The notes beneath the pieces were generated by a model. That model was not told where the DNA came from and searched no databases. It saw only the letters and a list, made by a program, of their open reading frames with translations. Made by a program: the position numbers and the translations under genes. This document shows, piece by piece, positions 14,283 through 50,232 of a DNA stretch of 64,000 nt. Within the stretch, counting starts at the first letter, position 1. Each line of letters begins with the position of its first letter. This DNA is from Candidatus Omnitrophota bacterium (lineage in GTDB: Bacteria; Omnitrophota; Gorgyraeia; Gygaellales; Profunditerraquicolaceae). The stretch is from assembly GCA_963805065.1 (NCBI GenBank), contig CAWDSS010000010.1, positions 407,059 to 471,058 of the forward strand, written 5' to 3'.

Positions 14283-14337
14283 GGGGACGTTTCTATTTTT
14301 CCTCTAAACTGGAGACGTTAAAAATAGAAACGTCCCC
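14283..14337. repeat. palindromic intergenic repeat, copy A (arms GGGGACGTTTCTATTTTT / AAAAATAGAAACGTCCCC)
   Basis: Perfect 18-bp inverted arms around the loop CCTCTAAACTGGAGACGTT, flanked by A/T runs; one of five copies in the window. Confidence 0.85.
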
Positions 14338-14344
14338 ATTTTTT

Positions 14345-14392
14345 CCATTTTTTCGCAGTTTTGCGTTTTTACTTTTGGCTTTTAACTTTTTA
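14345..14392. repeat. AT-rich heptamer-periodic tract (GTTTTGC/GTTTTAC-like units)
   Basis: cagttttgcgtttttacttttggcttttaactttttact with ~7-nt periodicity, directly flanking repeat copy A. Confidence 0.5.
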
Positions 14393-14394
14393 CT

Positions 14395-14880
14395 CTAATA
14401 CGATATCGCAATTCTCTTATTCTCTTCCCTGTGTTTCAAAATAACTCCATCCTCTTTGTATTTCTTAAGCAGGAAATGTGTTGCGGTGCCGCGCACATGC
14501 TCAAGGCAGGCGAGTTTCTCTGCCACAAAATTGGAAACTGTATGGATGTTTCTGCCTTCCACAACCAATAGAAGGTCGTATGTCCCGGAAAGAAGATAAC
14601 AGCTGGTTACTTCCGGAAAAGAATAAATCCTTTCGGCAATTTTATCAAAGCCAAAATCTTTCTGAGGCGCAATATTGACTTCTATAATTGCCCGCACGCT
14701 GGAATCTTCGTCTTTAATTAAATCTTTGTTTATCACTGCCTTATACTTTAAAATTACCCCTTCCTTTTCGTATTTTGCCATTGCCTTCTTTATCTCCTGC
14801 GGCTTTTTCTTTAACATTTTGGCAATTTCTTCCGCAGTTGTGCGGGCGTCTTTTTCCAAAATCTCTAATATTTCATCCAT
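14395..14880 (-). CDS. Lrp/AsnC-family transcriptional regulator
   Basis: 161 aa; N-terminal HTH (ILEILEKDARTTAEEIAKML) plus a C-terminal RAM/ACT-like domain. Confidence 0.8.
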   Translation of the reverse strand: MDEILEILEKDARTTAEEIAKMLKKKPQEIKKAMAKYEKEGVILKYKAVINKDLIKDEDSSVRAIIEVNIAPQKDFGFDKIAERIYSFPEVTSCYLLSGTYDLLLVVEGRNIHTVSNFVAEKLACLEHVRGTATHFLLKKYKEDGVILKHREENKRIAISY

Positions 14881-14892
14881 TTAATCCCCCTT

Positions 14893-14925
14893 TTTTAACA
14901 AAAATACCCCGCGTTTCCCGGGGCG
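14893..14925 (-). terminator. terminator after the CheY-like regulator (end of pst operon 1)
   Basis: Hairpin CCCCG-cgtttcc-CGGGG, followed on the minus strand by TATTTTTGTTAAAAAA. Confidence 0.45.
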
Positions 14926-14952
14926 AAATCTGCTGTAATTTTAAAGGATTTT

Positions 14953-15351
14953 TTAGTGTTTGTCTTTCTCACGCAAGTCAAGGCTGACTACCTTTTTTAG
15001 AATTATATCTTCGAGGAAGTTAGCTGTAAAGGGTTTGGAAATATAATCATCCGCGCCTAGGGATTTGGCCTGGGCAACGCTATCCTCATCGTTTAAGGCA
15101 GTAACCATAATGACTTTTATATCCTTGTTTATCTCTTTTATCTGGCGCAGCGTATCCAAACCAGACTCCGAACCTAAGCGGATATCCAAAAGCACGACAT
15201 GAGGCTGGTCCCTTTTTACTATGTCAATTGCCTCTATTCTGGAATTGGCCCCAAAGGTGCAGTAATTCTTCTTCCTTAAGAAACTGCGGGTCAGCTCGCA
15301 TATTTCGTTTTCATCATCAACTACTAATACCTTAATGATATCCATAAGCAA
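14953..15351 (-). CDS. single-domain response regulator (CheY-like receiver)
   Basis: 132 aa; VLVVDDE...LLDIRLGSESGLD...IMVTALNDED...GADDYISKPF. Confidence 0.8.
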   Translation of the reverse strand: MLMDIIKVLVVDDENEICELTRSFLRKKNYCTFGANSRIEAIDIVKRDQPHVVLLDIRLGSESGLDTLRQIKEINKDIKVIMVTALNDEDSVAQAKSLGADDYISKPFTANFLEDIILKKVVSLDLREKDKH

Positions 15352-15420
15352 TTATATTACCATATTTCGGGTCAGAATCAAGATATATTGAGGATCGTGC
15401 CTAAAGGAGGGTGCCTAATG

Positions 15421-16089
15421 CTAATTTAACTTTTCCGGCCGGTGTTTGACTACCTTGGCCTCTACCATATAGATTATATCCTCTGCAATATTGGTAGTAT
15501 GGTCGCATATACGCTCTAAGTGGCGGGAAATCAACAAGAGAGGCACTGCACGGTCAGCGGTTTTAGAATCCTTAAGCATATAATCATTTATCAGTTCCTG
15601 CTGCACGAGGTTACGCAGTTTATCAGCTTCTGCGTCCGAAAGAACCACTTCTCTTGCCAACTCTACATTCTTATTGATAAAGGCGTCTATTGCCTGGCGG
15701 ACCATATCCTGGGCAATGGCTGATAATTTTGGAATGTCAATCAGAGGCTTAAGCAATGGCTTATCTGCGATTTCTATAACACGCTGCGCAATATCCACAG
15801 CCAAATCAGCAATGCGTTCAAGCTCGGAATTAATCTTCATTCCCGTGGTGATAAACCTTAAATCACTCGCCAGGGGCTGGTAACGGGCAATTAAATCTAT
15901 GCATTTTTCGTCAACTTCAAGCTCTAATTCGTCAATCTTATCGTCAGCATCTATTACTTCATTGGCCTGCTGTTTATCCCGGTTTTTTAAAGCCTCGGTT
16001 GATTTGAAAATTGCTTCCTGAGCCAATACCCCCATCTTTAGGATATCCTTGTGCAGCTCTTTTAGCTCCTCATCTAAATGTCTTTCCAT
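15421..16089 (-). CDS. phoU: phosphate-transport regulator PhoU
   Basis: 222 aa; two PhoU repeats ([31 protein letters not shown]; ERICDHTTNIAEDIIYMV). Confidence 0.85.
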   Translation of the reverse strand: MERHLDEELKELHKDILKMGVLAQEAIFKSTEALKNRDKQQANEVIDADDKIDELELEVDEKCIDLIARYQPLASDLRFITTGMKINSELERIADLAVDIAQRVIEIADKPLLKPLIDIPKLSAIAQDMVRQAIDAFINKNVELAREVVLSDAEADKLRNLVQQELINDYMLKDSKTADRAVPLLLISRHLERICDHTTNIAEDIIYMVEAKVVKHRPEKLN

Positions 16090-16145
16090 TCAATCCTCCT
16101 TGCCTGCAAAGGCACACCCGCGCAACTCCACATAAGCGCGGGGTG

Positions 16146-16901
16146 TTAACCGTATCTACCGGTAATATAATCTTCCGTACGCCTATCTTTAGGTGCCGTG
16201 AATATATCCTGTGTTTTTGCGAATTCAATCAATTCGCCTAACAGCATGAACCCTGTATCGTCGGAAACGCGCGCAGCCTGCTGCATATTATGGGTAACAA
16301 TTATTATAGTATAATTATTCTTTAGTTCACGCATTAATTCTTCTATCCTCTGCGTTGCCTGGGGGTCTAGTGCGGAACAAGACTCATCCATCAATAATAC
16401 GTCGGGTTTTACTGCCAAAAGCCGTGCAATACAGAGCCTCTGTTTCTGCTCCAAAGACAATCCCAAAGCCGATTCCCGAAGCCTATCCTTCAAATCTTCC
16501 CACAAAAGGACCGACCTTAAACTTTTTTCCACGATTTCATCCAGGTTGTTTCGCCTTACAGACTCAGCATGGATTTTTTCTCCGAAAACAATGTTTTCAT
16601 AAATTGACAGGGGAAACGGGTTGGGACGCTGAAACACCATGCCCACGGTTTTGCGCAATCTGACTAGGTCTATTTTTGCATCAATTATATTCTCTTTTTC
16701 GATAAGGACTTCGCCCTCTACACGCACGCCGTCAATCAGGTCATTCATCCTGTTAAAAGCCCTAAGCAAGGTTGACTTGCCGCATCCGGAAGGCCCGATA
16801 ATCGCGGTAATTCTTTTCTCTGCAAAATCAGCATTCACGTTTTTCAGGGCATGAAAATCACTGTACCAAAGATTAAGGTTGTTAACGATTATTTTAGGCA
16901 T
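16146..16901 (-). CDS. pstB: phosphate ABC transporter ATP-binding protein PstB
   Basis: 251 aa; Walker [10 protein letters not shown]; ABC signature [16 protein letters not shown]; PstB-typical C-terminal [10 protein letters not shown]. Confidence 0.9.
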
Positions 16902-17647
16902 TATCCGAACTTTCCTCTAATATAACCATCTGTTCGCTTATCAAAAGGCGCAGTAAATATTTTATCGGTATTATCAATTTCGATCAATTCCCCATTCAAA
17001 AAAAACGCAGTCCTATCGCCCACCCTGGCTGCCTGTTTAACATTATTCGTAACCAGAACTATTGTGTAATGCTTTTTCAATACCAGCATTGCCTCTTCCA
17101 CTTTCGCAGTAGATATGGGGTCAAGCCCGGAACATGGCTCATCGAATAAAATCACATCCGGCTCTAACGCCAGGGTCCTTGCTATGCACAAACGCTGCTG
17201 TTGGCCTCCGGATAATTTGAAAGCGGAAACACTTAACCTGTCTTTGACCTCTTCCCAAAGATATCCTTTTTTCAACGCCTCTTCTACCTTCTCTGCCAGC
17301 TTCTTTGTATTCTTTAACCCAAGCATCCGTATTCCATAGGCCACATTATCAAAAATAGAAAGCGGCAGAGGCAAAGGTAAAGCAAAAACCATGCCGATTT
17401 TTCTACGCAATAATTCTACATCCATCTTATTAATGCCTACTCCGTCAAATTTAATGCTTCCCGTCATTTTAAAATTAAGACTGAGGTCATTTAAACGGTT
17501 AAGCATCCTTAAAAAAGTAGTCTTGCCGCTATTCGCCGGCCCTATCACGCTTAAAATTTCATTTGGCGCAATCTCCATGCTGACGTTTTTGAGCGCATGT
17601 ATAGAACCAAACCAAATATTTAGACCCTTGATATTAAACTTAGCCAC
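16901..17647 (-). CDS. second, divergent PstB-like ABC ATPase in tandem
   Basis: 248 aa; Walker [10 protein letters not shown]; signature [16 protein letters not shown]; C-terminal [10 protein letters not shown]. Confidence 0.8.
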
Positions 17648-17670
17648 AACGACCTCTCAAATAAACCTCT

Positions 17671-17783: not shown

Positions 17784-17795
17784 CATCAAACAAAC

Positions 17796-32635: not shown

Positions 32636-32742
32636 TTAAAAGTTAAAAGCCAAAAGTAAAAAGAACAAGTAAAAAGTCAAAACTTTTAAATTTTAACTTA
32701 AACTTTTACCTTTTTGCTTTTACCTTTTGACTTTCTATTATA
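32636..32742. repeat. AT-rich heptamer-periodic tract (AAAAGTN units, then their complement), forming a long imperfect dyad
   Basis: aaaagttaaaagccaaaagtaaaaagaacaagtaaaaagtcaaaac...ctttttgcttttaccttttgactttc. Confidence 0.5.
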
Positions 32743-34038: not shown

Positions 34039-37000
34039 TTAGCATTTAGAGAAACCACAGGCATGGCATTTAACGCAGCCTTCTTCGTGGCGTAGCGCAC
34101 CCCCGCAATCCGGGCATACCCCTACGATGTCTCCTCTATCTTCCAAATCAGTAGTGATGATTTCATCTTCGTGCGAATGCTTCATAGAAATACTTGCCGC
34201 CGCTTCTACTGAAGCCTTCAAGAGCTGGCTATTGACCAGCCTTCTCTCAACTACGCGCGCGATAGCATCTGCGCAGGAGAAAATCCTTTGTCCTTTTTCC
34301 CATGAAGGGCTGGGGCAGCGGATATTACGCAATTGCTCAATTATCGACTTTACTTCTATGCCTGAACGAAAACCTAAAGATACTAATCTACCGATTGCTT
34401 CCAGCTGCGATGCTGCGCAACCGCCGGCCTTACCCATCTGCGTAAACAGTTCAAAAGGCCTGCCTTCCTCGTCGACGTTTATAGTAACATAGAGATTGCC
34501 GCATCCGGTTGAGACCTTGGTTGTGGTACCGATAATTACCTCAGGCCTTGGCCGCGGAGCAATTTCTTTTTTGAATTCCATGCCTATCGGTTCCTGCTTT
34601 TGTTTGGCAGTACCGACATTAAGCACCTGCTCTTCACGGCTCTTATCACGGTATATAGTAATACCTTTACAACCGGTTTCATAAGCCAACAGATATGCTT
34701 TTCTTACATCTTCCAATGTTGCATCATGAGGGAAGTTTATGGTCTTGGAGGTAGCATTGTGCACGTATTTCTGGAAAGCTGCCTGCATGCGCACATGCCA
34801 TTCAGGGGAAATGTCATGGGCTGTTACAAATATCCTTTTTACGTCATCAGGTATGCCTTCGATGTTCTGGATAGAGGCGTTTTCCGCAATTTTTTCCATT
34901 AATTCGCGGCTGTAAAATCCTCTTTCCTTGGCAATCTCCTCAAACAAAGGCTCTACTTCTACTAGCTTATCGTTATCCATGACATTACGATAATACGATA
35001 CCGCAAATATTGGCTCTATCCCCGAAGAACTCGGGCCGGCAATGATACTTATGGTGCCGGTAGGCGCTATTGTAGTAAGGGTGGCGTTACGCATTTTCAT
35101 AGGATGATCTTTTTTATCGTAAATACTTCCCTTAAAAGCAGGGAACACCCCTTTTTCTTTTCCCAGTTCCAGTGATTTTGCGGTTGATTCCTCCAATATA
35201 AAAGACATTACTTTTTCCGCAAGCGCCACAGCCTCATCGCTATTATAAGGTATCTTAAGGATAATTAACAGGCTTGACCAACCCATAACACCTAACCCGA
35301 TTTTACGCGTCACCTTGGTGGCTTTTTCTATTTGGGGAAGGGGGAATTTGTTTACGTCAATAAGGTTATCCAGAAAATGCACTGCCAGGCGGGTAACTTG
35401 TTTTAATTTATCCCAATCGATTTCTATGCGTCCGCCCACGTTTTTATGCATTACCGCCAGGTTTATTGAACCCAGGTCGCAGCTTTCATAAGGCAAAAGC
35501 GGCTGCTCTCCGCAGTCGAGAGAAATAAAACCATTGCTAATAAAAGTCAATGTTGCTGGTTCAGTAAGGTCGTATACTTCTTGTTCTCCTAAATACTCAA
35601 TCTTATCTATCGTATCTTCAAATTCAGACGAATAAAAATTATGTTTAGATAAAATTTTTAACTTCTTTTCATTTTTATTACAGAGAAAACCGATTTCTTC
35701 AATAAATTTCTTTATATTATCCCTGCTTATTTGAAGCTCATGGCATACCCCATCTAAAATATAATCCCGTCTTTCTCCTCCTGCGCTTGTATAAGCAAAA
35801 CCTCTTCTTTCTCGGCGGCTCCTGTCATATATCTTAGAATATATGCCTAAATTTATGAGGAGAAGTTGGACGCCTTTTAAAAGTTTAAGAGATTTTGCAG
35901 TCAGGCGTATATATGTCGTGTTGTTAGTCTCCTCTATACCGATTGTGCCATCAGCAGTAAATAGTCCCTGCAAAAACCCAATTACAGCTTCTTTTGGTGC
36001 TGTGCAAATTAAGTCCGGAACTTCTTTCTGTTCTGAATCCCATGCTTTAATCCCTAGGCTTTTAAAAAATTCTACAAAGTATTTACTGTGATATGATAGA
36101 TGATATACATTATTTTCTCTCAACACTTCTTTGATATCCTGTCCGTAAAAATTATTTATAATGGGTTTGATGTAATCTAAAATCTCTAAATCATCCTGGC
36201 TAAATGTGAAACCTGTCCGGCAGTTTTCATCTTGATCTCGCAACCAACCATCTCCTACCAATAAGCCTAAAACCTGCCCTAATTCTTTTGACCATCGGGA
36301 AGGAAAATTAAATTTGTAGCTCTTGCTATTTTCTCCAATATATTCATTCTTAATATTAAAAGGCAAACAGGTATTATCATTAAACTTTCCTGCTCCGGAT
36401 TGGATAAGCACTTTGTGGATGCGGGGTTTTAAATCTTGCACCCTGACCCAGCCTTCGGTAGTCATAACCTTATGGTCAGCGGTAGCTATTAACTCAAAAC
36501 CTGACTTAGCAATCGCTTTAAACACGGGTTTCACGCCGGTTTTAAAAACCCGGCTGATTCTATTTAAGGAAACTCCTAATTTTACTTCAGTGGCCACGCT
36601 GCCTTCTTCTTCAACGCTAAAGAGAGCATCTAATATTCTATCATCGGTAAATATGCCTATGCCTCCGCCACTATAGTCTCTGGTCAGATCCTTTATTTTC
36701 ACCAAGCCTTTTTCTGTTGAAACTAATGTATCTCCTACAACGCAAGGATTGGTACTTTCAATTTTTCCTAATCGCGGCGTAGGATTGTATTGATTAATCC
36801 TATCGATAAAGATAATGCCCGGCTCACCATTCTTATGCGCCTGCTTAACTATCAGGTCAAATACGGTTTTGGTATTAAGGCTCTGCACGACTTTGTGTGT
36901 ATGAGGATCGATCAAATCATAATCCTCTCCATTTTTAAGCTTATTCATGAAATCGTCGGTAATGGCAACCGAAATATTAAAATTGGTTATATGCTTGTTG

Positions 37001-37563
37001 TTTTCCTTGCAGGTGACGAATTCCATGATATCGGGATGATCTACCCTTAGTATCCCCATATTTGCCCCGCGGCGAGTACCACCCTGCTTAACCGCTTCGG
37101 TTGCCGCATCATAAACTTTCATAAAAGATATCGGCCCGGAGGCAATCCCTCCGGTAGTTTTTACCACCGCATTCTTGGGGCGAAGCCGCGAAAAAGAAAA
37201 TCCCGTGCCGCCGCCTGATTTATGTATGAGGCTGGTAACTTTCAGGGTTTCAAATATAGATTCCATGGAATCGTCAATTGGTAAGGTAAAACATGCGGAA
37301 AGCTGGCCTAAGTCTTTTCCTGCGTTCATAAGGCAAGGAGAATTAGGCATGAATTCTAAAGAAGTCATGATTTCTAAAAAATACTTTTCTAAGTTTGCCA
37401 CTTCTGTTTCGCTCTTTGCGTAAAGTTTATCCGCCAGCGCAATTGCCTGGGCGACCCTGCGAAACATTTCTTCCGGGGTTTCAATTACTTTGCCCTGTTC
37501 GTCTTTTTTAAGGTACCTTCTCTCTAGCACCTTAAGGGCATTTTCCGAGAGTTTCAGTTCCAT
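34039..37563 (-). CDS. nrdJ: class II (adenosylcobalamin-dependent) ribonucleotide reductase NrdJ, interrupted by an intein
   Basis: 1174-aa ORF; exteins total ~764 aa with active site IESTNP|CGEQPLLPYESC and a C-terminal Cys-rich zinc ribbon CPDCGG...CVKCHACGFSKC. Confidence 0.9.
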   Translation of the reverse strand: MELKLSENALKVLERRYLKKDEQGKVIETPEEMFRRVAQAIALADKLYAKSETEVANLEKYFLEIMTSLEFMPNSPCLMNAGKDLGQLSACFTLPIDDSMESIFETLKVTSLIHKSGGGTGFSFSRLRPKNAVVKTTGGIASGPISFMKVYDAATEAVKQGGTRRGANMGILRVDHPDIMEFVTCKENNKHITNFNISVAITDDFMNKLKNGEDYDLIDPHTHKVVQSLNTKTVFDLIVKQAHKNGEPGIIFIDRINQYNPTPRLGKIESTNPCVVGDTLVSTEKGLVKIKDLTRDYSGGGIGIFTDDRILDALFSVEEEGSVATEVKLGVSLNRISRVFKTGVKPVFKAIAKSGFELIATADHKVMTTEGWVRVQDLKPRIHKVLIQSGAGKFNDNTCLPFNIKNEYIGENSKSYKFNFPSRWSKELGQVLGLLVGDGWLRDQDENCRTGFTFSQDDLEILDYIKPIINNFYGQDIKEVLRENNVYHLSYHSKYFVEFFKSLGIKAWDSEQKEVPDLICTAPKEAVIGFLQGLFTADGTIGIEETNNTTYIRLTAKSLKLLKGVQLLLINLGIYSKIYDRSRRERRGFAYTSAGGERRDYILDGVCHELQISRDNIKKFIEEIGFLCNKNEKKLKILSKHNFYSSEFEDTIDKIEYLGEQEVYDLTEPATLTFISNGFISLDCGEQPLLPYESCDLGSINLAVMHKNVGGRIEIDWDKLKQVTRLAVHFLDNLIDVNKFPLPQIEKATKVTRKIGLGVMGWSSLLIILKIPYNSDEAVALAEKVMSFILEESTAKSLELGKEKGVFPAFKGSIYDKKDHPMKMRNATLTTIAPTGTISIIAGPSSSGIEPIFAVSYYRNVMDNDKLVEVEPLFEEIAKERGFYSRELMEKIAENASIQNIEGIPDDVKRIFVTAHDISPEWHVRMQAAFQKYVHNATSKTINFPHDATLEDVRKAYLLAYETGCKGITIYRDKSREEQVLNVGTAKQKQEPIGMEFKKEIAPRPRPEVIIGTTTKVSTGCGNLYVTINVDEEGRPFELFTQMGKAGGCAASQLEAIGRLVSLGFRSGIEVKSIIEQLRNIRCPSPSWEKGQRIFSCADAIARVVERRLVNSQLLKASVEAAASISMKHSHEDEIITTDLEDRGDIVGVCPDCGGALRHEEGCVKCHACGFSKC
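35515..36744 (-). mobile_element. intein (410 aa) with a LAGLIDADG homing-endonuclease domain, inserted immediately before the catalytic Cys of NrdJ
   Basis: Starts CVVGDTLV (Cys codon at 36742-36744); block B TADHKV; dodecapeptide motifs LGLLVGDGWL and FLQGLFTADGTIG; block F VYDLTEPATLTFISNGF; ends ...ISLD followed by extein Cys (Asp codon 35515-17, Cys 35512-14). Confidence 0.85.
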
Positions 37564-37586
37564 TGTTCCTCCATATTAAAAATAAT

Positions 37587-37640
37587 GGGGACGTTTCTAT
37601 TTTCCTCTGAACTGGAGACGTTAAAAATAGAAACGTCCCC
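37587..37640. repeat. palindromic intergenic repeat, copy B
   Basis: GGGGACGTTTCTATTTT-cctctgaactggagacgtt-AAAAATAGAAACGTCCCC, between the nrdJ start and the end of the LacI-family gene. Confidence 0.85.
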
Positions 37641-37767
37641 ATTCTTTTACAGTAAAGTTTATAATAGCATATTTTCTAACGGGGTCAAGATAAAAATACA
37701 ACATATTGTAGGCTTAGGTTTTTGATATACAATAAATTGTGCTAGAGCAACCTTTCCGACGGGCTAA

Positions 37768-38787
37768 TTAAAGCGGTTTACAGGAATCCCTTAACACCAT
37801 TTCGGCGGGCAGAAGAATCTTATTAATTTTAATTTCTTTCTTAGAGCTCATAAGACGGTTTAATTCTTTTACGCTTTCTTCTGCCATTTTAATTAGCGGC
37901 TGCCTTACGGTTGTTAATGCCACCGGCGCATCAAGGCCGGAAGGGTTATCATCAAAACCGATGATGGATAAATCACCGGGGATATTCTTTCCTAACTCGC
38001 GTGCCACAGCCATCGCTTCCAGGGCCATGGAATCAGAAGCCACAAATACGGCACTCGCCGGGTCGCTCATTTTAAACAAGCCCTCTGCAGCCTGCCTTGC
38101 CTGTCCGCGCGAATAATCAGTCTTAAATATGTAATCTTCGCGTAACGCAATGTTATTTTTCTTCAGCGCCCGCTTATATCCTTCCAGCCTCATAGCTGCT
38201 GCCTGGGTAACTAAGTCTCCGGATATATGCGCGATTTTTTTATGGCCGAGGCTGACCAAATAACTCACTGCCTCAAAAGCCGCAGCCGCATTATCTACGG
38301 CAATGCAGCTCACATTCAAATCTTCCACATAATTATTTATTACTACACAAGGGATGTTTTGAGATACTGCGTCTTCCAATTGGTGGCGGTTGCCGATGAT
38401 GTCTGCGAAGATTATGCCTCCCACTCCTTTTAAATTAAGCGCTGTCCTTGCGTCTGTAAGGTGTAACAGTAAATCCAGCTTTAATGCCGAGCAAAGTGTA
38501 CCGATGCCGCGGATTAATTCCAAAGCATAGAATGAGTAAAATACTCCTTCGTAGCGCGGGATAACCAGGGCAATCACATTGCTTTTACCCGTCGCTAACC
38601 TTTGAGCAAAAACCGAAGGCTGGAATTTCAGCTGTTTTATGGCATCCGAGACCCTAATGCGGTTTTTTTCCTTGACAGTGGAGAATTTGTTTATTACGCG
38701 GGAAACCGTAGTAATGGAAACGCCGGCAAGGCGCGCAACATCTTCGATGGAAATAGTTTTGGAGGGACCTTTTTTAATACGGACCAT
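37768..38787 (-). CDS. LacI-family transcriptional regulator
   Basis: 339 aa; N-terminal HTH ISIEDVARLAGVSITTVSRVIN; periplasmic-binding-protein-like effector domain. Confidence 0.8.
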   Translation of the reverse strand: MVRIKKGPSKTISIEDVARLAGVSITTVSRVINKFSTVKEKNRIRVSDAIKQLKFQPSVFAQRLATGKSNVIALVIPRYEGVFYSFYALELIRGIGTLCSALKLDLLLHLTDARTALNLKGVGGIIFADIIGNRHQLEDAVSQNIPCVVINNYVEDLNVSCIAVDNAAAAFEAVSYLVSLGHKKIAHISGDLVTQAAAMRLEGYKRALKKNNIALREDYIFKTDYSRGQARQAAEGLFKMSDPASAVFVASDSMALEAMAVARELGKNIPGDLSIIGFDDNPSGLDAPVALTTVRQPLIKMAEESVKELNRLMSSKKEIKINKILLPAEMVLRDSCKPL

Positions 38788-41513: not shown

Positions 41514-43223
41514 TTAATAGACGTCAACCAAATCAATGCTGCGGTCAAGGATACCGGAAGAAGAGACTATAACCAGGTTTATTTCTTTGGTGCCGGGTGA
41601 GAGATAGGATGCGTTAAACTTTGAGTTTTGGGAAGAAGGCTTCATTGAGCCTATATCACCTGACCAGAGGTATTGTAACTCTACTTGCATGCATCCGCTT
41701 TCCGGTAGATACGCACTGGCAGTAAAATTAGCCTCCTGACCTTTATTTAATCTGTAGGCTGAGGATTTTAAATCCGCTTTGGACATGTTAAAAACGGAAT
41801 TCTGTTTTAATGAAATGTCTAAAAATGTTTTGAGGTTATAATCAATGGGCTTACCTTGTTCAATTTCCTTTAACCTCTCTTTAGCTGATGAAACTGTGTC
41901 CGCAAAATTATCTGCAGCCTTATTTAGCAATTGATTATAAAACTCTTTTGCTTTCGTGTAATCCTCTTCCCACTGGCTAAGCAGGCCCAGCTGGTATAAA
42001 CTGGAAATTGCCTGAGGGCTTAAATCTTTTTCTTCCTTGGCCAATTGTTCAAAATATTGCCTGCCTGATTTTATATCTGCACCAATATAGGTGCTGATTA
42101 TGCCGGCTTTGAAAATTGCCTCATCGCGGTGAGGCGACTGTGTAAAATACTTGATTAAATCCAGATAAATATCCTTAGCCGAAGTATAATCCTTGGATTT
42201 TTCTAAGTTAAAGGCGCGCAAATACATTAGTTCCTGGCCAAAAGATTTCTTTCCACCCAGCTCTTCTATGTTTTTAAATAACTTTTCTGCGTAAGCAGGG
42301 TCATTTAACGCCTGGTCTTTGTAAGAAAACTTTTTAGCGGTATCTATGAGCAGTGGGATTGATTTTTCTTTTGGCAAGGACTTCAAGATCCTTGCAATAT
42401 AGGCATCGTAAAGGGTTTCACTTAAATCCAGGTTACCTTCCTGATAAAAGCTTGAGGCGCTTGCCAGGAGTTCATCGTCTTTCATTTCAGATGAAGCTAT
42501 TGCTTTAGCATAAATTTTGTACAGTTCTCTGGATTTTCCTTTTTCTTCATAAGCTAAAAGCCCGTCCGCAACATCCTTTATGGGTTTTAAATCCCTGGCC
42601 CCTTTGGCAAACTCTGAAGCCGCATTCATAAGGCCCGACAAAGATTCCTCTGCGAAAACATCCTGCTGGTTCTTGTGGAATTGCCAAATCAATAGCCGGC
42701 TGTAAAGATTAATCGGCTCGGTTTGAGATGTTTTGTCAATTGCGTTTTTGGCATCCAGCGTCAACTCTTCCCGGTAGTTGTTGCCTTGCGCAAAATATTC
42801 ATCCCAAAACTTGCTTTCCTCAAGATACTTAAGCTGTTTGAAACGGGTTAAGGCAATATAGTAATTTATAAAAGGCGTAGCTACCTGATTCTTTTGCACC
42901 AAAGATTTCAAGAAATCTACGAATTCGGAATATTTATTATCCTTATAATAAAGACTGCTTAATTCTTCAAACGGCGCACGCAGCGAGTCATTGGTCTTTG
43001 ATTCAATAATCTCCTTGCTTAATGTAACTAATCTATTGTTGTCGTCTTGAGCAAGAACTGAATGACAAATACCAAAGCACAAATGACAAATGACAAATGT
43101 TAAAATAATGGGGACGTTTCTATTTTTCTGCTGATTGGGAGACGTTAAAAATAGAAACGTCCCCATTTTTTTGACCATAGACCATTGGCCCTTCAATGTT
43201 GCTTGAATTTTCAATTTTATCAT
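41514..43223 (-). CDS. secreted TPR-like repeat protein (5' end uncertain: the ORF reads through palindromic repeat copy C and a heptamer array)
   Basis: 569-aa ORF; signal-peptide h-region ILTFVICHLCFGICHSVLA|QDD; helical TPR-like repeats; beta-rich C-terminus. The ATG at 43221-23 overlaps the stop of the upstream gene (ATGA). Confidence 0.5.
   Translation of the reverse strand: MIKLKIQATLKGQWSMVKKMGTFLFLTSPNQQKNRNVPIILTFVICHLCFGICHSVLAQDDNNRLVTLSKEIIESKTNDSLRAPFEELSSLYYKDNKYSEFVDFLKSLVQKNQVATPFINYYIALTRFKQLKYLEESKFWDEYFAQGNNYREELTLDAKNAIDKTSQTEPINLYSRLLIWQFHKNQQDVFAEESLSGLMNAASEFAKGARDLKPIKDVADGLLAYEEKGKSRELYKIYAKAIASSEMKDDELLASASSFYQEGNLDLSETLYDAYIARILKSLPKEKSIPLLIDTAKKFSYKDQALNDPAYAEKLFKNIEELGGKKSFGQELMYLRAFNLEKSKDYTSAKDIYLDLIKYFTQSPHRDEAIFKAGIISTYIGADIKSGRQYFEQLAKEEKDLSPQAISSLYQLGLLSQWEEDYTKAKEFYNQLLNKAADNFADTVSSAKERLKEIEQGKPIDYNLKTFLDISLKQNSVFNMSKADLKSSAYRLNKGQEANFTASAYLPESGCMQVELQYLWSGDIGSMKPSSQNSKFNASYLSPGTKEINLVIVSSSGILDRSIDLVDVY
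43058..43100. repeat. heptanucleotide tandem array (CAAATGA)x3 plus degenerate units
   Basis: gaatgacaaataccaaagcacaaatgacaaatgacaaatg. Confidence 0.7.
43110..43164. repeat. palindromic repeat, copy C
   Basis: GGGGACGTTTCTATTTTT-ctgctgattgggagacgtt-AAAAATAGAAACGTCCCC. Confidence 0.85.
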
Positions 43224-44575
43224 TTGTTTTTTACCTTCCCTTTACTCTTGTTATTTAACACCGGGTTCTTCCAGAATTCCCTCAATACATAATACGCCTT
43301 GCGGGGAGTGCGTTTATTAATGCCGTTTTCCAGTTCTTCCGACAGCGCGGCTATCCCGAACCACTCCTCGTTCATATTCATATTATTGGGCGCTTTTATA
43401 TCAAAATAATAACTGCCGTTGGACCAGCCTGCTTCTGTATCATGTATCTTCCAGCCTTCCGGATTATCTTGATTGTGTTTCCACCATTCATCCGTCCATT
43501 CAAAAGTTGTGCCGCCTATGCAGTTACCAACACCAGTTTTAGTGTTATACAAATTTTCGTAAATCTGGCGCCACTGCCACTCAAGGAAAAATGCCTGCAT
43601 GTTCTGGTCTTCTTTTTTTAAATACGCGTCGTACGCATCAGCGCCGAATTCCGATAAGAGAATTGGCTTATCAAAAGTTGCTTTCAGGGAATTAAACAAA
43701 TTCCCGAAGGTTTTCCCCCGGTAAATTATGCAGGCGACTAAATCTACTTGGGGTGCGAATTTATTGGCGAATTCAAGCCCGATTAATTCTCCGTTGCCTA
43801 AGGCAACGGGATGGTTAGGGTCGATTTTATGAATTTCTCCTGCCAGCTCGTTTACATATGAATAGTAAATTTCTGCCTTCATTGCCTTTTGTTTCTGGGG
43901 GTCTGTTTCCTTGTCTATTTCATCTGTTGACCAACGGTTAACCATCCCTAAGCAGGAATAATTGTTTTCATTGCCCAAAATCCAAAGCAATACTCCCGGC
44001 TCATCTTTATAGAGGCTGACCATATTCAACACGTCTTTTTTAACTTTATCCTGAAATGCCTTATCTCCGTAAAATGGGCAGGGATATTCCCAAAACCCCA
44101 GCCAGTTTCCCAAAATAGTGCGTATGCCGTAAATTTCATAAAAATCTTTAATTACTTTTTTTACTGCCTCGGGATTTTCTCCTGGCTGATAAATCCTTAT
44201 CGTGTTTACGCCCATTTCTTTCATTAATTTTCCATCAACCAGCCAGGGCTTATTGGGATCAGACCACCAGTCATATTCATGATTTTGCCCGATGGGGATA
44301 GGGCTGTAACAGACGCCTTTTACAATGTAGGGCTTTTGGTTTACGATTAGTTGGTAATGGCTGTTTTTGAGTTTTTTTATGAAGACGGCAGGCAGAGGCC
44401 TGGAAGCCATGCCTGAAAGGCAGGTTAAAAAGAAAATGGCACAAGGCACAAGGCTCAGGGCACAAAGTAAACCTTTGGCCCTGAACCCTGGATCCTGAAT
44501 CTTGAATCGTTTAATAATTTTATTCGTACTTAATCTCATCCAGATAGAAAGTTGCGCCTTCCGGATTGTTATCAA
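43220..44575 (-). CDS. GH2-like clan GH-A TIM-barrel glycoside hydrolase (WxLGNE acid/base and LSEFG nucleophile-type motifs), secreted
   Basis: 451-aa ORF; VLLWILGNENNY and PILLSEFGADAY. The 5' leader is encoded by heptamer arrays; an alternative start, MASRPLP, lies at about 44410. Confidence 0.55.
   Translation of the reverse strand: MITIRKAQLSIWMRLSTNKIIKRFKIQDPGFRAKGLLCALSLVPCAIFFLTCLSGMASRPLPAVFIKKLKNSHYQLIVNQKPYIVKGVCYSPIPIGQNHEYDWWSDPNKPWLVDGKLMKEMGVNTIRIYQPGENPEAVKKVIKDFYEIYGIRTILGNWLGFWEYPCPFYGDKAFQDKVKKDVLNMVSLYKDEPGVLLWILGNENNYSCLGMVNRWSTDEIDKETDPQKQKAMKAEIYYSYVNELAGEIHKIDPNHPVALGNGELIGLEFANKFAPQVDLVACIIYRGKTFGNLFNSLKATFDKPILLSEFGADAYDAYLKKEDQNMQAFFLEWQWRQIYENLYNTKTGVGNCIGGTTFEWTDEWWKHNQDNPEGWKIHDTEAGWSNGSYYFDIKAPNNMNMNEEWFGIAALSEELENGINKRTPRKAYYVLREFWKNPVLNNKSKGKVKNK
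44438..44506. repeat. two adjacent heptanucleotide tandem arrays, (GGCACAA)x4 and (CCTGAAT-like)x4
   Basis: ggcacaaggcacaaggctcagggcacaa ... ccctgaaccctggatcctgaatcttgaa. Confidence 0.75.
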
Positions 44576-45719: not shown

Positions 45720-45736
45720 TTCTACACCCCCCTTTT

Positions 45737-45924
45737 TAAAAAGTTAAAACTAAAAAGTAAAAACTCAAAACTGTAACTCAAAACTTAAAAGTTTTGAGCT
45801 TTACGTTGCAGTTTTGCGTTTTGCATTTTACGTTTTGCGTTTTTTACCGCCTCCTTTCTACTTTCCTACTTTTTTACTTTTTGCTTTTAAATTTTTTTAC
45901 TTTTTGCTTTTTACTTTTTACTTC
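45737..45924. repeat. long AT-rich heptamer-periodic tract: A-rich half (AAAAGTA-like units), then T-rich half (GTTTTGC/TACTTTT units)
   Basis: aaaaagttaaaactaaaaagtaaaaactcaaaactg...gttttgcgttttgcattttacgttttgcg...tactttttgcttttaaatttttttactttttgctttttactttttact. Confidence 0.6.
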
Positions 45925-48371
45925 CAGAGTTTCTTATACAAGTAATAAGACTTGCGTAATTGCCTTAAAAACGGGCTTAATTTTCCGTCACCCTGGCCGC
46001 AAATTCCCAGCCACTCCTCATGCATATAACCGTCGGGAAACGGCCCGGTAAATAATCCTTTTGTATCATGCGTGTATGGCTCATAAGCCTTCCACCATTC
46101 ATCCAGCCATTCAAACGCCACTGCGCCGATAGAGTTTCCCGCACCGGTGTGAAATGCCATGTTGTTTTCAATATCCTCCCAGGAGCCCTGATGATACACT
46201 GCCTGGGCTTCTTCAGCCTCATCCAGGGAACTGCCTTCTGCGTATGCAGGGCAGCCATACTCTGTAATAAACACCGGCACATCTGCTTCTTCTCTTACGC
46301 TTTTCCAAAGCCTGCCAAAACCATACTCTCCCCGATAGGCGTTAGTGCCGAAAATATCAATATCAGGCGCATCTTTGCCGAATTTATCCAGGAATAATAT
46401 GTCGCCGCTACAAATTGCTACAGGATGTTCGGGGTCAATTTCTTTAATGTGGTTTGCCACTTCATTTGCGAATTTAAAAAATGCGTCGGGTTCCTTATTG
46501 GCATTACAGGCATAGCCGTAAACATTTTCATTACCCAGGAGCCAGAATAATATGTAGGGTTCATCTTTAAATTCCAGAACCATGTTAGTCACTGACTCCA
46601 TCATGTTTTTCTTTTGCTCTTCATTAGTATAATCTGTGCCCGGGCTCCAGGGTGCGCCTGAACCCAAAGCATATTTACCCAGGAAATCGCCCATAATTAC
46701 CATTATCCCGTAATTATCGTAAAGGTCGCGCATAATTTCCTTATGCATTTTATAAGGGTGGTGATAAATCCTTAGGGCATTTACACCCATTTCTTTCATT
46801 AGCCTGAAATCTCCTACTGCGGGTTCGTCTTTATCCTGCAGATTATTTCTGTTTTTATCCACGAAAGCATCATACGGACCGTCTGCCTTGCCGTTCTTAT
46901 TAAAATCATCCTCCATCCAGTTAGTCATTGTCCCGTTATCCGGAGATTCCCCTACTTTTGTGGGAGCATAAGTCAGGCCCTTGATGACAAACGGCTTATT
47001 ATTAACCAGCAATTCCCAGTCGCCGGTTTCATATTGCACTAAATGCACCCTGCCTTTACCGCGCCTCTTTTTTATGCTCAAAAGGTCTTTAGAGGGTTTT
47101 GGCTTGAATTTATCAAGAATACCGATTTTCACAAACCTGCCCGGGTTAGTAATTGTTATATCATTAGAAACGTCATTATCATAACCATTGATTATTCGGA
47201 TATCCGCATCTACTAATTTGTATCCCAACTGCGGATTCTTATGCAGTAAATAATTTATCTTGGCAATTGCTGCTTGGCCAACATACCAGGGCGTATGCCA
47301 ATAAGTCCAGCCGTAACTCCCCGGGTAATGCACTACAATTGCATAATAACATTTAATCGCATGTTTAATTAGGCCGGATTTTTCCAAAAACAAGGCGGTA
47401 TAAAATAATTTTACTCCCTCTGGCTCAGGCGCATTAGCCCATTTTAAAAACCCTGCTTCCAAATCAGGGGAATGTACAAAATCCCAGTGCGAGCCTTCCA
47501 GCCGCTTTTGTTTCATGGCTGTTTTAAATTCAGGATCCCAGCGCACAGAGCTGGAATTGGGATAAATCCCCTCGCCTACCGCCTGAATCAGGCCTTCCTG
47601 ATCGGTAACCACATATTTATAATCCTTAGTCCCTACGTTTTCAAACTTTCCGTATTTCCCATAATCTACAACATCTTCCTTGCCGGGATCATAGAGGACT
47701 ATTTTTGTGGGCAGCTGGCTTACTTTTATTTTTACTGTTTCTTCAGGCATTGTGCCCGGGCAGGGCGCAGGCAATTTTTCATTGGGATTTAATTTAAGTA
47801 TACTTTCTCTGGCAGCCCTGGCAACAGACCAAAACCAGCCTCTAGGGTCCCAGGCTTGCGCAAAACAATATTTTTCCACCACTACTTTAAAGGCCTTAAT
47901 GGACTCTTCTTTCTTTCCCTGATCCCTGTAAGATTCGCCTTGAATAAAATGCGCTGTGGCAACGTCATTTAATTCTCCCACAGCTTCAATATCCGGCCTG
48001 TTCTTAGGCAGGGATTTTAATGACGCCTGTTCTTTCTCTGCTTGAGGAGTATACAAATCTATTAACTGCTGGGTGTATTTGAAGGTTTCTTCTATGTTCT
48101 TTTTTCCATGGGCATTCCAGGATTTAACGATAAGCTCGCCGGATGTAGGTTTGTCTTGAGCGAATAAGTAGCGACATGTACTAAAACAAAAAATAAGCGA
48201 TAAACAAATAATACATAGGTCGATAGTCGATAGTCGATAGTCGATAGTTTTGAAAGAAAAGGGGACGTTTCTATTTTTAAATAAATAACATAACGTAGTA
48301 AAAATAGAAACGTCCCCTTTTCTTTTAGACCATAGACCCTTAGATTTATTTTTTCTATTTATTTTTTTCAT
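45918..48371 (-). CDS. large secreted GH2-like clan GH-A glycoside hydrolase (N-terminal extra domains plus a C-terminal TIM barrel paralogous to 43220..44575)
   Basis: 817-aa ORF; ILFWLLGNENVYGY and VPVFITEYGCPAY; signal-peptide h-region IDLCIICLSLIFCFSTCRYLFA|QDKP. The leader reads through palindromic repeat D and (GTCGATA)x4. Confidence 0.55.
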   Translation of the reverse strand: MKKINRKNKSKGLWSKRKGDVSIFTTLCYLFKNRNVPFSFKTIDYRLSTIDLCIICLSLIFCFSTCRYLFAQDKPTSGELIVKSWNAHGKKNIEETFKYTQQLIDLYTPQAEKEQASLKSLPKNRPDIEAVGELNDVATAHFIQGESYRDQGKKEESIKAFKVVVEKYCFAQAWDPRGWFWSVARAARESILKLNPNEKLPAPCPGTMPEETVKIKVSQLPTKIVLYDPGKEDVVDYGKYGKFENVGTKDYKYVVTDQEGLIQAVGEGIYPNSSSVRWDPEFKTAMKQKRLEGSHWDFVHSPDLEAGFLKWANAPEPEGVKLFYTALFLEKSGLIKHAIKCYYAIVVHYPGSYGWTYWHTPWYVGQAAIAKINYLLHKNPQLGYKLVDADIRIINGYDNDVSNDITITNPGRFVKIGILDKFKPKPSKDLLSIKKRRGKGRVHLVQYETGDWELLVNNKPFVIKGLTYAPTKVGESPDNGTMTNWMEDDFNKNGKADGPYDAFVDKNRNNLQDKDEPAVGDFRLMKEMGVNALRIYHHPYKMHKEIMRDLYDNYGIMVIMGDFLGKYALGSGAPWSPGTDYTNEEQKKNMMESVTNMVLEFKDEPYILFWLLGNENVYGYACNANKEPDAFFKFANEVANHIKEIDPEHPVAICSGDILFLDKFGKDAPDIDIFGTNAYRGEYGFGRLWKSVREEADVPVFITEYGCPAYAEGSSLDEAEEAQAVYHQGSWEDIENNMAFHTGAGNSIGAVAFEWLDEWWKAYEPYTHDTKGLFTGPFPDGYMHEEWLGICGQGDGKLSPFLRQLRKSYYLYKKLWK
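48219..48246. repeat. heptanucleotide tandem array (GTCGATA)x4, perfect
   Basis: gtcgatagtcgatagtcgatagtcgata. Confidence 0.85.
48257..48322. repeat. palindromic repeat, copy D (extended-arm variant AAAAGGGGACGTTTCTATTTTT / AAAAATAGAAACGTCCCCTTTTC)
   Basis: Loop aaataaataacataacgtagt. Confidence 0.85.
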
Positions 48372-48377
48372 TGAACT

Positions 48378-49226
48378 CTATCCTACAATTGCTCCCTGGG
48401 TTACGCCTTTCACAATATATTTCTGCATCAGCACGTAAACTATTATTATAGGTAAGGCAGTTATGGTTAAGCCTGCCATTAACAACGGATAATTCGTGAC
48501 AAATTCTCCCTGGAATGTCTGAAGCGCAACCTGAAGCGGCATATATTGCTTTGAATCAAAAATTATCAAAGCCAGGATATATTCATTCCACACGTTCAGT
48601 GCGTTAAATACAACCACTACTGCTAACACCGGCTTTGCCAAAGGTAAAGCCACATGCCACCATATTCCTAATTTTGAACAACCATCTATCCTGGCTGCGT
48701 CTTCCAGCTCTTTGGGCAATTTATCAAAAAATGTCTTTAATAAAAATATGCTGGTAGACAACCCCACGTTAATCATGCATAAAATATAGCCTATGGGAGT
48801 ATTTCTCAGATGCAGTTTATTCAATAATACGTACAGGGCAACAAAACTTCCCGGTATAGGAATCATCATCGCTACCATAAACATGAGAAATAAAAAATTC
48901 CTGCCGGGAAAACGAAAGCGTGAAAATGCATACGCTGCCATGGAAGAAATAATCACTATGCCCACTACCACTGATACGGTATATAAAATACTGTTCAGGA
49001 AATACCTGTCAAACCCGCCCTGAATCCAGGCCTGGTAATAATTTGAAATATGGAATGTTTTTGGGATTAGCGAGTTGTCTTTAAATATGGTTTCCTGCGT
49101 CTTGAGGCTGGAAGAAACCATCCACAAAAGAGGAAAGATACAGCTGATTGAGACAGTGATGAGGAAAATGTGTACCAGCGCATTTACGGTTACTCTTTTG
49201 ATTTTATAATAAGCAGTCGTCTTCAT
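48378..49226 (-). CDS. carbohydrate ABC transporter permease (MalG/UgpE-like)
   Basis: 282 aa; EAA loop region LEDAARIDGCSKLGIWWHVALPLAKP. Confidence 0.8.
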   Translation of the reverse strand: MKTTAYYKIKRVTVNALVHIFLITVSISCIFPLLWMVSSSLKTQETIFKDNSLIPKTFHISNYYQAWIQGGFDRYFLNSILYTVSVVVGIVIISSMAAYAFSRFRFPGRNFLFLMFMVAMMIPIPGSFVALYVLLNKLHLRNTPIGYILCMINVGLSTSIFLLKTFFDKLPKELEDAARIDGCSKLGIWWHVALPLAKPVLAVVVVFNALNVWNEYILALIIFDSKQYMPLQVALQTFQGEFVTNYPLLMAGLTITALPIIIVYVLMQKYIVKGVTQGAIVG

Positions 49227-49232
49227 ATGTTT

Positions 49233-50159
49233 CTATTGCATTTGCCGCGCTCTTTTGGAGAAGCGGTATTGGATAAACGATATTATTACTAATACCACGC
49301 CGAAAGTTATGCCTTGTGCGCAGGCATAGCCGAAACGCGATGAACCGCGCATGGAAGCCAATATTCTTAATACAGGAACTGAAGTATAGCCTGCCAACTC
49401 TCCGCCTACCAATCCGATAATCAAAACAAACGCCTGCATGGTTCCCAAAACCGTAAGTATTGCCACCAACACCGCAACCGGTATCATCAAGGGAACTGTG
49501 ACCCTGGTAAAAGATTGCCAGGCATTTGCCCCGTCCACTCGTGCTGCCTCATATAGCTCGCGCGGAATTGTTTGTAATCCTGCCAAAAATATCAAGAATC
49601 CCCAGCCAAAGCCTTTCCAGGAATGCACCAATGCCACAGTTGTAAGGGCAGTCTTGGGATCTGAAAGCCAGTGATGCACTAATTGCGGCAGGCCCACACT
49701 AACCAGCATACGGTTAATAATATTAGCACCATCAACATCGTTGATAATAAAACGCCAGGCCATGCCGACTACTATTTCCGATAAAACAGGCGGAATGAAA
49801 AATATCATCCTGTAAAAATTCTTCGCACGTATTTCTCTGTCGCAAGCCCAAGCCAGAAGAAAAGCCAGCGCGTTCTGGAAAGTCAGGGCGATTAGTGTAA
49901 TGTAACCTGCGTTCCGCATGGCTTGCCACCAGCTGGGGTCCTGTAAAATTATTTCTTTGAAATTGTTAAAACCGACAAATATCTTGGTGGGCAATATGCC
50001 GTCCCAGTCATAAAGGCCCAATTGGAACACCCAGATAAAGGGTATGATATAGAAAATTACAAATATTGCTACGGCGGGGAGAACAAATAAATAGTTTTCT
50101 AAAGTGGATTTTATCCGCATATAAAACTTTATTAATTGTAACTTAATGTCAAATGACAA
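49233..50159 (-). CDS. carbohydrate ABC transporter permease (MalF/UgpA-like)
   Basis: 308 aa; LYEAARVDGANAWQSFTRVTVPLM. Confidence 0.8.
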   Translation of the reverse strand: MSFDIKLQLIKFYMRIKSTLENYLFVLPAVAIFVIFYIIPFIWVFQLGLYDWDGILPTKIFVGFNNFKEIILQDPSWWQAMRNAGYITLIALTFQNALAFLLAWACDREIRAKNFYRMIFFIPPVLSEIVVGMAWRFIINDVDGANIINRMLVSVGLPQLVHHWLSDPKTALTTVALVHSWKGFGWGFLIFLAGLQTIPRELYEAARVDGANAWQSFTRVTVPLMIPVAVLVAILTVLGTMQAFVLIIGLVGGELAGYTSVPVLRILASMRGSSRFGYACAQGITFGVVLVIISFIQYRFSKRARQMQ

Positions 50160-50168
50160 AACTCAAAG

Positions 50169-50232
50169 AAAAGGGGACGTTTCTATTTTTAACGTTTCCT
50201 AATCAGAAGAAAAATAGAAACGTCCCCTTTTC
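50169..50232. repeat. palindromic repeat, copy E (extended-arm variant), itself nested inside a 12-bp outer inverted repeat
   Basis: Loop aacgtttcctaatcagaag; outer CAAATGACAAAA (50143-54) / TTTTGTCATTTG (50279-90). Confidence 0.85.

Follow-up and report, generated by a model that had tools for sequence, protein, structure and literature searches.

Introduction

The TIRYTs are RAYT-like genes situated between long inverted repeats, many of which contain GGGGWSAS (Di Nocera, De Gregorio and Rocco 2013, PMC3733652), and in some cases these repeats extend over the gene's 3' end, or appear as moderately abundant dispersed dimers (PMC3733652). They have been equated by Quentin et al. (2018, PMC6006769) with subclass 2.1 of the TnpA-Y1 proteins, characterised by the motifs NHVH, W[EQ] and YIELNP and by a median length of about 238 amino acids (aa), and this subclass corresponds to Group 1 of the RAYTs (Bertels et al. 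2017, PMC5581495). The classical repetitive extragenic palindrome (REP) is an imperfect palindrome of 20-40 bp, one end of which carries a GTAG or CGTC tag that stays unpaired (PMC3733652). Here we describe a family of intergenic palindromes present in a stretch of 64,000 nucleotides (nt) of a Candidatus Omnitrophota bacterium (contig CAWDSS010000010.1, positions 407,059 to 471,058), called the window throughout, which contains five copies, A to E. It is very probable that each of these palindromes is a head-to-head doublet formed by the terminal inverted repeats found on either side of a Y1/HUH transposase-like gene of the TIRYT class. A literature search found no description of this repeat or element, nor of such REPIN/TIRtron-type systems for Omnitrophota.

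The Palindromes and the Gene between Their Arms

The whole window was searched with the pattern GGGGACGTTTCTATTTTT, allowing up to 2 mismatches, and 10 arms of this type were found, arranged as five inverted pairs, with none in the dinucleotide shuffles used as control. These are exactly the five palindromes, at the same positions, that had been reported in the initial annotation of this DNA. The 18-bp arms had been described there as identical, which is correct for nine of the ten, all reading exactly GGGGACGTTTCTATTTTT, but not for the left arm of copy B, which ends in TTTTC and has 1 mismatch. The proposed division into two sub-variants, A/B/C and a D/E type with extended arms, is borne out by a repeat finder and by the comparison of the loops. 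Thus, the arms of D and E are perfect over 27 nt, with the form AAAGAAAAGGGG...CCCCTTTTCTTT, and those of A, B and C measure 25-29 nt and are 93-96% complementary, the spacing between arms being 19-20 nt in all five copies. The flanks of A, B and C have the form AATAATGGGG...CCCCATT, and their loops, all oriented in the same way, have ctggagacgtt in common; the loop of D is unrelated to these and that of E is unique. Neither solo half-sites of at least 10 nt nor decayed arms were found in the window, where the arms show 0-1 mismatch and the other matches, with 4-5 mismatches, stand at about chance level. The core GGGACGTTTCTATTTT occurs 10 times in the 64 kb (both strands), always between genes, and all five copies lie between open reading frames (ORFs), so that the location at gene boundaries claimed for every copy is confirmed.

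The first tblastn query in the search for a partner gene was the sequence of the E. coli RAYT (YafM), which located Y1_Tnp ORFs in three element-bearing loci (L005, L035 and L070), the one in L005 lying 70 nt downstream of a canonical element. This L005 ORF has 2084 relatives, the best 120 of which show 60-73% identity to it at a length of about 225 aa; all the named ones among these 120 belong to Omnitrophota, and most are recorded on a single contig. One relative, P0048, is the ORF of L059, which is located between two elements. Ten more members were fetched with their surrounding DNA, and the clade was thus studied in 12 loci (L005, L059, L169, L170, L172, L173 and L175-L180). In all 12 the ATG is preceded, at a distance of 50-150 nt, by a left arm, single or in the form of a doublet, and in the 11 that include downstream sequence the right arm always overlaps the stop codon or lies at most 40 nt from it, its AAAATAG usually constituting the last lysine codon and the stop codon of the ORF. 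Taking into account that about one in ten gene boundaries of the window has an element, two-sided flanking in 11 of 11 loci is far beyond what chance would give.

The leader that separates the left arm from the ATG, of about 50-100 nt, keeps a conserved order: TTGTTAGATTT, an anti-Shine-Dalgarno sequence, ACGTCTATTAA in the loop, the Shine-Dalgarno sequence and ATTTTTATG. As judged from its sequence, a hairpin in this leader pairs the Shine-Dalgarno sequence, so that the ribosome-binding site would be concealed in the manner of IS200. The leader was located at 717-784 of L172, and also in L005, L059 and L169-L180; its ACGTCT motif is likewise found at the beginning of the A, B and C loops when these are read on the gene-sense strand.

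The window organism appears to have its own Y1 gene, P0098 (201 aa, a clade member), on the 1.19-Mb contig of the window, given that P0098 and the AsnC protein of the window are each found on one contig of 1,191,048 bp, both in ERR10755942. P0098 is preceded at a distance of 68 nt by a solo arm whose flank is of the D/E type, and a full doublet, the loop of which (CCGCTAAGCTGCAGAGATGA) resembles that of A, B and C, begins 3 nt past its stop codon. The cognate gene was found in one of 11 loci of the metagenome-assembled genome (MAG) CAZRVK and in one of 4 loci of JAHISH.

The Y1 genes of L035 and L070 were rejected as partners, since they belong to other clades, and the L070 type has its own flanking repeat, GGGGTCAGAATTATTTT. 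None of 80 metagenome relatives of the L070-type gene is accompanied by the element of this family, and the nearness of that gene to a variant element in L070 is thus coincidental. In the sister clade (W-E-G-R motif; metagenome loci L089-L168, and 3812-4560 of L070), more than 50 loci have the gene between inverted repeats of the form GGGG[TA]CAGA, tandemly duplicated in several of them, and none of these relatives has the Omnitrophota arm. A second, different Y1_Tnp gene, at 4181-4873 of L169, lies 1 kb downstream of the cognate gene, with a Fic/RHH pair between the two, and is flanked by no arm of this family.

The Encoded Protein and a Possible Role of Residue 101

The Pfam family Y1_Tnp is matched with E values of 1e-15 to 1e-17 by the L005 ORF and also by the Y1 genes of L035 and L070, which are more distant. 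In the alignment of the clade neither the HUH histidines nor the catalytic tyrosine vary, and N59-H60-x-H62, W99-Q100 and Y120-I-E-L-N-P are invariant or nearly so among 21 clade proteins of 201-236 aa; these motifs and this length fit the TIRYT class (RAYT Group 1, subclass 2.1), to which the partner gene would therefore belong. Six clade members score 20-32 bits with the IS200 model of NCBIfam, the cut-off of which is 55. When a profile of the clade was compared with the PDB, the best match was 4ER8 (E. coli TnpA-REP on a REP hairpin; E 7.7e-7), followed by the transposases of ISDra2 and IS608; the profile was required, as phmmer with one clade protein against the PDB gave no match. An AlphaFold model (pLDDT 68.5, pTM 0.70, with low confidence for residues 89-115) has 4ER8 as its best fold match as well (E 1.3e-6, TM 0.54/0.64). 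Identity within the clade is star-like, 52-66% across hosts, with one pair at 76%.

Two types of arms exist in the clade, and they are accompanied by different residues at one position of the protein. In 5 of the 12 loci the arms on both sides are of the G type, GACGGTTC/GAACCGTC, and all five proteins have Asp101 (W-Q-D-R-F); in the other seven they are of the T type, GACGTTTC/GAAACGTC, and all seven proteins have Gly101. Column 101 is the sole one among 249 alignment columns that separates the arm types, and the Asp101 proteins do not form one clade in a neighbour-joining tree. For P0029 and P0108, G-type arms were predicted from the residue before the DNA was looked up, and both predictions were confirmed. 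The adjacent Arg102 aligns, in the profile alignment, with R97 of 4ER8, for which Messing et al. (PMC3479197) reported a base-specific contact to G32 in the REP hairpin. This covariation of G101D with the arm, seen in a small sample of related sequences, fits an enzyme that reads the stem directly and in a sequence-specific manner.

Distribution of the Family across Genomes

A scan of one genome per species with the pattern GACGTTTCTATTTT-N(10-30)-AAAATAGAAACGTC found the arm pair in at least 86 stretches from at least 25 species-level MAGs, most of them labelled Candidatus Omnitrophota. The local GC of these stretches ranges from 0.26 to 0.67, the core GGGACGTTTCTATTTT being retained even at 65-67% GC, and their loops measure 10-28 nt. 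The bases located outside GGGG/CCCC are complementary yet lineage-specific (AATAAAGGG/CCCTTTATT, AAAATGGG/CCCATTTT, AATTAGGG/CCCTAATT). Copies from the same genome or lineage often have a common loop, which points to copying rather than to independent origin. The claim that the five copies are dispersed elements, and not remnants of one duplicated region, is supported by their unrelated flanking genes and DNA and by the occurrence of the arms in all these stretches and MAGs.

In 648 kb of other genomes, 98 paired arms stand against about 15 unpaired 10-mers, which are mostly tandem arm duplications or degenerate pairs. The secondary copies mostly have 0-1 mismatch per arm, and one variant, GACGGTTC/GAACCGTC, is compensated on both arms. 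Tandem single-arm duplications or nested doublets (left-left...right-right) were observed at 2015-2140 of L017, 1824-1910 of L060 and 7157-7243 of L086, and the same pattern at 3912-3945 of L076 and 2376-3135 of L177, which suggests slippage or successive insertions at existing copies.

In L001, L038, L053 and L061, orthologues of window genes have the element at different boundaries, and in other MAGs the orthologous genes have it on another side or lack it. These positions led us to discard the idea of a gene-specific operator or conserved regulatory site.

MAGs labelled Aminicenantes provided the loci L009, L014, L019, L021, L022, L039, L044, L047, L048, L055, L068, L084 and L085, with a GC of 0.65-0.66 and a AAATTAATGCATT loop in all, and in L016 and L079 the element occurs in MAGs labelled Clostridia (GC 0.26, degenerate copy) and Planctomycetota. 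All these copies could belong to mislabelled bins or reflect a spread beyond Omnitrophota.

Hundreds of copies genome-wide had been conjectured in the initial annotation. If the density of the window, 5 per 64 kb, is extrapolated to the 1.19-Mb contig, roughly 90 copies would be expected. Logan contigs from the same strain stop at the elements, for instance at copy D.

Proposed Mechanism

The folding, binding, nicking and copying of single-stranded hairpins are established for the IS608 and TnpA-REP families. The master unit observed in the loci of the clade consists, in this order, of a left arm, a leader with a hairpin sequestering the Shine-Dalgarno sequence, an ORF of about 225 aa and a right arm whose TAG is usually the stop codon, and the short doublets, made of two arms and a loop of about 19 nt, would be its non-coding derivatives. 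A mechanism can be proposed on the model of IS608 TnpA and the TnpA-REP of E. coli. A doublet would fold as a hairpin in single-stranded DNA, and the Y1 enzyme would recognise its stem in a sequence-specific manner, cut and rejoin the DNA, and spread copies into intergenic spacers; catalysis, that is, the cleavage of the hairpin by the Y1 protein, is putative. Recognition of the stem by the enzyme would explain that an arm of 16-18 nt is nearly invariant in Omnitrophota of 26-67% GC with drifting loops and flanks, and copying together with turnover would account for the sharing of loops within genomes and for positions that are not conserved between species.

We infer that the elements are probably mobile and that they may affect RNA 3' ends. 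A copy included in a transcription unit would give an RNA hairpin of 18-27 bp with A/U-rich flanks, which may terminate transcription in part or stabilise 3' ends, as at the junction between a binding-protein and a permease gene occupied by copy E. The copies typically start about 20 nt past a stop codon and end about 10-40 nt ahead of the next start, a placement suited to a partial terminator or an mRNA-stabilising hairpin. The bidirectional termination suggested in the initial annotation is plausible, the predicted RNA hairpins being stable and D and E having a U-tract.

The initial annotation had attributed to the palindromes the look of miniature inverted-repeat transposable elements (MITEs). 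This likeness stands insofar as they would be non-coding doublets of the inverted repeats of a transposase gene, but the parent gene is of the Y1/HUH type, and DDE insertion sequences are not involved. There is no visible duplication of a target site: outside GGGG/CCCC, the five copies and those of other MAGs have flanks that are inverted, and not direct, and that are thus part of the arms.

Difficulties and Alternative Explanations

Several observations weigh against the interpretation of the palindromes as doublets of the repeats of a TIRYT gene. In NCBIfam, REP_Tyr_transpos (NF047646) ranks first for six clade members, with 54-69 bits and a cut-off of 80; some host MAGs are labelled Planctomycetales, Aminicenantes or Clostridia; and the link between P0098 and the window consists of the same contig size and the same sample, with no overlapping sequence. 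Neither a pair of filled and empty sites nor a target-site signature was found. Unlike the classical REPs, an arm taken singly forms no hairpin, and G-type hairpins occur in otherwise T-type genomes, at 6209-6248 of L029 and 4773-4820 of L070. In addition, the arms are uniform (0-1 mismatch) and almost no relics exist, yet no relation exists between the loops of D, of E and of A-C, a combination that would also be expected if each copy were selected for a function in the host. A model of selfish elements does not fully explain why decayed arms are nearly absent beside unrelated loops, which leaves room for selection on each copy.

A more far-reaching version of this interpretation can be advanced only tentatively and seems to us rather doubtful. 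According to it, the partnership between the Y1 gene and the doublet would be phylum-wide and largely vertical, residue 101 would determine whether T:A or G:C is accepted at position 8 of the stem, and the copies would be kept as hairpins at the 3' ends of host RNAs.

It is unlikely, although the compactness of the unit would suit it, that the gene belongs to an active, multicopy, selfish and horizontally spread IS200-like insertion sequence, with the palindromes as recent neutral MITE derivatives and not as partners of a domesticated single-copy gene. The inverted repeats, the sequestered Shine-Dalgarno sequence resembling that of IS200 and the stop codon inside the right arm are in its favour, as are the neighbourhoods of the transposase gene, which vary between genomes, and the near-perfect arms, which could reflect a recent burst of copying; moreover, Group 1 RAYTs have been rated the most similar to insertion sequences (Bertels 2017, PMC5581495). 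However, most protein clusters are found on one contig only, the star-like identities are not those of near-identical copies, the unrelated loops between otherwise identical arms argue against all copies being young, and no match to the element was found among 2.9 million viral contigs.

Quite improbable, in our opinion, is the explanation of the palindromes as host-selected RNA 3'-end elements, either bidirectional terminators or stabilisers, whose stem would be read by a host protein that binds or processes RNA and whose link to the transposase would be secondary. The RNA hairpins predicted for the five copies are stable, with -31 to -44 kcal/mol and z scores of -6.5 to -9.8, and the stems are followed by UUUUCUUU in D and E and by AUUAUUUU in A-C, the flanks being A/U-rich, with a U-tract, at D and E. 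Half of the copies start within 20 nt of a stop codon. D is at the end of an operon, and E is at a binding-protein/permease boundary, the position that REPs occupy in malE-malF of E. coli; the absence of decayed copies would agree with such a role too. On the other side, a fixed sequence of 16 nt is not needed by a terminator, positions differ between orthologous operons, the copies usually lie only 8-40 nt ahead of the Shine-Dalgarno sequence or start of the next gene and leave no room there for a promoter, and the Y1 gene has the arms at its sides in all 12 loci, one of its residues varying together with them. The terminator scan calls none of the five copies, because their loops are of about 19 nt, and B may be located downstream of a promoter-like site. 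Divergent spacers are not depleted either, as they hold 8 of 74 copies, compared with a background of 9%, from crude ORF calls in which the 'divergent' case of L001 (67% GC) is a miscall.

Some narrower readings were also considered. Strict selection for termination is not supported, as copies occur in divergent spacers at the background rate. A promoter was rejected on inspection, as the only -10-like hexamer of the arm, TAGAAA, is a poor match and the variable length of the loop excludes a fixed -35. A bias towards G-U wobbles on the sense strand of imperfect copies did not emerge from the cases available, which are few and mixed. No Rfam family reached its gathering score in the window.

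A DNA-uptake signal like the DUS of Neisseria or the USS of Haemophilus, often present as inverted pairs that double as terminators, would agree with the conservation across species and with inverted pairs in intergenic DNA, but such signals are mostly single copies and also lie inside genes, and the rarity of solo arms in the window and in the 648 kb of other genomes reduces this reading to a negligible probability and leads to its rejection.

The Five Copies and Their Surroundings in the Window

Table 1. Location and features of the palindromes and of other elements in the window.
Feature	Position (strand)	Core or arms	Arm starts (left/right)	Characteristics	Neighbouring genes	RNA hairpin
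Copy A	14276..14344	core 14283-14337	14283/14320	loop cctctaaactggagacgtt; 25-nt arms, 96%	stop of AsnC/Lrp regulator gene (14395-14880, -); aminotransferase gene (13107-14270, -), ATG 12 nt away	-33.9 kcal/mol, z -7.1
Copy B	37579..37648	core 37587-37640	37587/37623	left arm end TTTTC, giving a G-U wobble on the - strand	LacI-type regulator gene (37768-38787, -); intein-containing ribonucleotide reductase gene (34039-37563, -)	
Copy C	43099..43175	core 43110-43164	43110/43147	29-nt arms, 93%; loop subfamily as A, B	glycoside-hydrolase-like gene (43220-44575, -); TPR protein gene (41514 to ~43010, -)	
Copy D	48253..48325	arms 48253-48279/48299-48325	48261/48300	perfect 27-nt arms AAAGAAAAGGGGACGTTTCTATTTTTA	3' of second ABC permease gene (48378-49226, -); 5' of GH2-like gene (45918 to ~48170, -)	-37.8 kcal/mol, z -9.8
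Copy E	50164..50236	arms 50164-50190/50210-50236	50173/50210	perfect 27-nt arms, unique loop	solute-binding-protein gene (50296-51594, -); first permease gene (ATG ~50120, -); ABC sugar transporter operon	-44.3 kcal/mol, z -8.8
Heptamer arrays adjoining copies	14366-14394; 43061-43099; 48219-48248			tandem	copies A, C and D	
Heptamer arrays, palindrome-free	32638-32734; 44438-44508; 45737-45923; 63871-63947			tandem, intergenic		
Outer repeat of E	50150-50161; 50281-50292; also 43080-43095			motif TGTCATTTG/CAAATGACA	only beside copies C and E	
Sigma70-like site	37688-37661 (-)			TTGACC, 16 nt, TATTAT, upstream TG	between LacI-type gene and copy B	
Ribonucleotide reductase large-subunit gene	34039-37563 (-)			intein with LAGLIDADG homing-endonuclease domains; C-terminal TSCPD domain		
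3842-aa single ORF	52428-63956 (-)			occupies the last 11.5 kb of the window		

The copies and the genes and repeats around them are collected in Table 1. The arrays of tandem heptamers, with units that include TTTTTAC, AAAAGTA, AATGACA, GTCGATA and TGACCAT and that resemble the STRR repeats of cyanobacteria, had been associated with every palindrome. They do adjoin A, C and D, but not B or E, and they are found in palindrome-free spacers too, so that they represent a general feature of the spacers of this genome and not a part of the element. The sequence GACCATAGACC follows both C and D, and recurs at 63924 beside a GTCGATA array, with no palindrome between arrays. The 12-bp inverted repeat in which copy E had been described as nested is real, with CAAATGACAAAA at 50150 and its complement at 50281, but it is not part of the family.

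The promoter-like site upstream of copy B indicates that this copy may lie in the 5' untranslated region of the reductase mRNA, and not at a 3' end. No long ORF of the window is found on the + strand, all being on the - strand, and the GC skew is negative throughout, which places the window on one replichore with genes that are strongly co-oriented. The GTG listed as the start of the 3842-aa ORF overlaps heptamer arrays, and its true start is therefore probably further in.

Significance and Comparison with Known Systems

The assignment proposed here explains a conspicuous repeat that breaks the short-read assemblies of these uncultured bacteria, and would extend REPIN/TIRtron-type systems to the candidate phylum Omnitrophota. 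What has to be highlighted is the depth of the conservation across an uncultured phylum, the apparent abundance of the element, and the covariation of one residue with one base pair. Group 1/TIRYT genes, which had been reported without REPs or with few repeats, can thus be paired with a dense and deeply conserved repeat family. The covariation of G101D with a base pair leads to a simple hypothesis, open to testing, on how these enzymes recognise sequences and, if the reading of residue 101 is true, it would be a natural read-out of hairpin recognition by RAYT-type enzymes. With regard to annotation, the hairpins would point to places where transcripts are likely to end or to be processed, and are not to be taken for gene-specific operators.

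The bacterial MITEs (Correia/NEMIS, RUP, Nezha) resemble the element in being short, non-coding and intergenic, in forming stable hairpins and in having terminal inverted repeats, here of 18-27 bp, like those of the transposase-bearing unit. However, they typically measure 70-300 bp, compared with 55-73 bp here, where no target-site duplication exists and the parent gene is of the Y1/HUH type, acting on single-stranded DNA, instead of DDE.

The REPIN-RAYT systems (Bertels and Rainey 2011; E. coli REP/BIME with TnpA-REP) have in common with this family the extragenic, high-copy inverted doublets that form hairpins, the repeats of which also flank an apparently low-copy Y1 gene, and 4ER8 is the nearest structure in both sequence and fold; copies also occupy known REP places, such as the binding-protein/permease gene junction. 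Elements of 55-73 bp with perfect arms of 18-27 bp, no GTAG and a CGTC inside the paired stem are not classical REPs. Besides, each REP has its own hairpin, whereas a single arm is not a palindrome here, and REP sequences are usually specific to a species or genus. The element fails, in sum, as a GTAG/CGTC REP, as a target-site-duplicating MITE and as an uptake signal.

The likeness is closest to the TIRtron/TIRYT systems, with a Y1/HUH gene of about 225-240 aa containing NHVH, WQ and YIELNP, long flanking inverted repeats that start with GGGG[AT][CG] and may overlap the end of the gene at the 3' side, and repeats that are also present elsewhere in the genome as dimers. The published GGGGWSAS of the TIRtrons is fully matched by the GGGG[TA]CAGA of the sister clade, and at 6 of 8 positions by the start of the Omnitrophota arm, GGGGACGT, which can thus be regarded as a lineage-specific version of the same design. 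The differences are that the repeat is here GGGGACG[T/G]TTCTATTTT, that its arm is kept almost unchanged by many species of a single phylum, from 26 to 67% GC, and that a covariation between a single residue and a single base pair is visible. Moreover, Group 1 RAYTs have on average about 12 of their flanking 16-mers per replicon, whereas the doublets look dense here, with 5 per 64 kb. Taking all this into account, the element is best filed with the TIRtron/TIRYT systems, working like a REPIN-RAYT pair.

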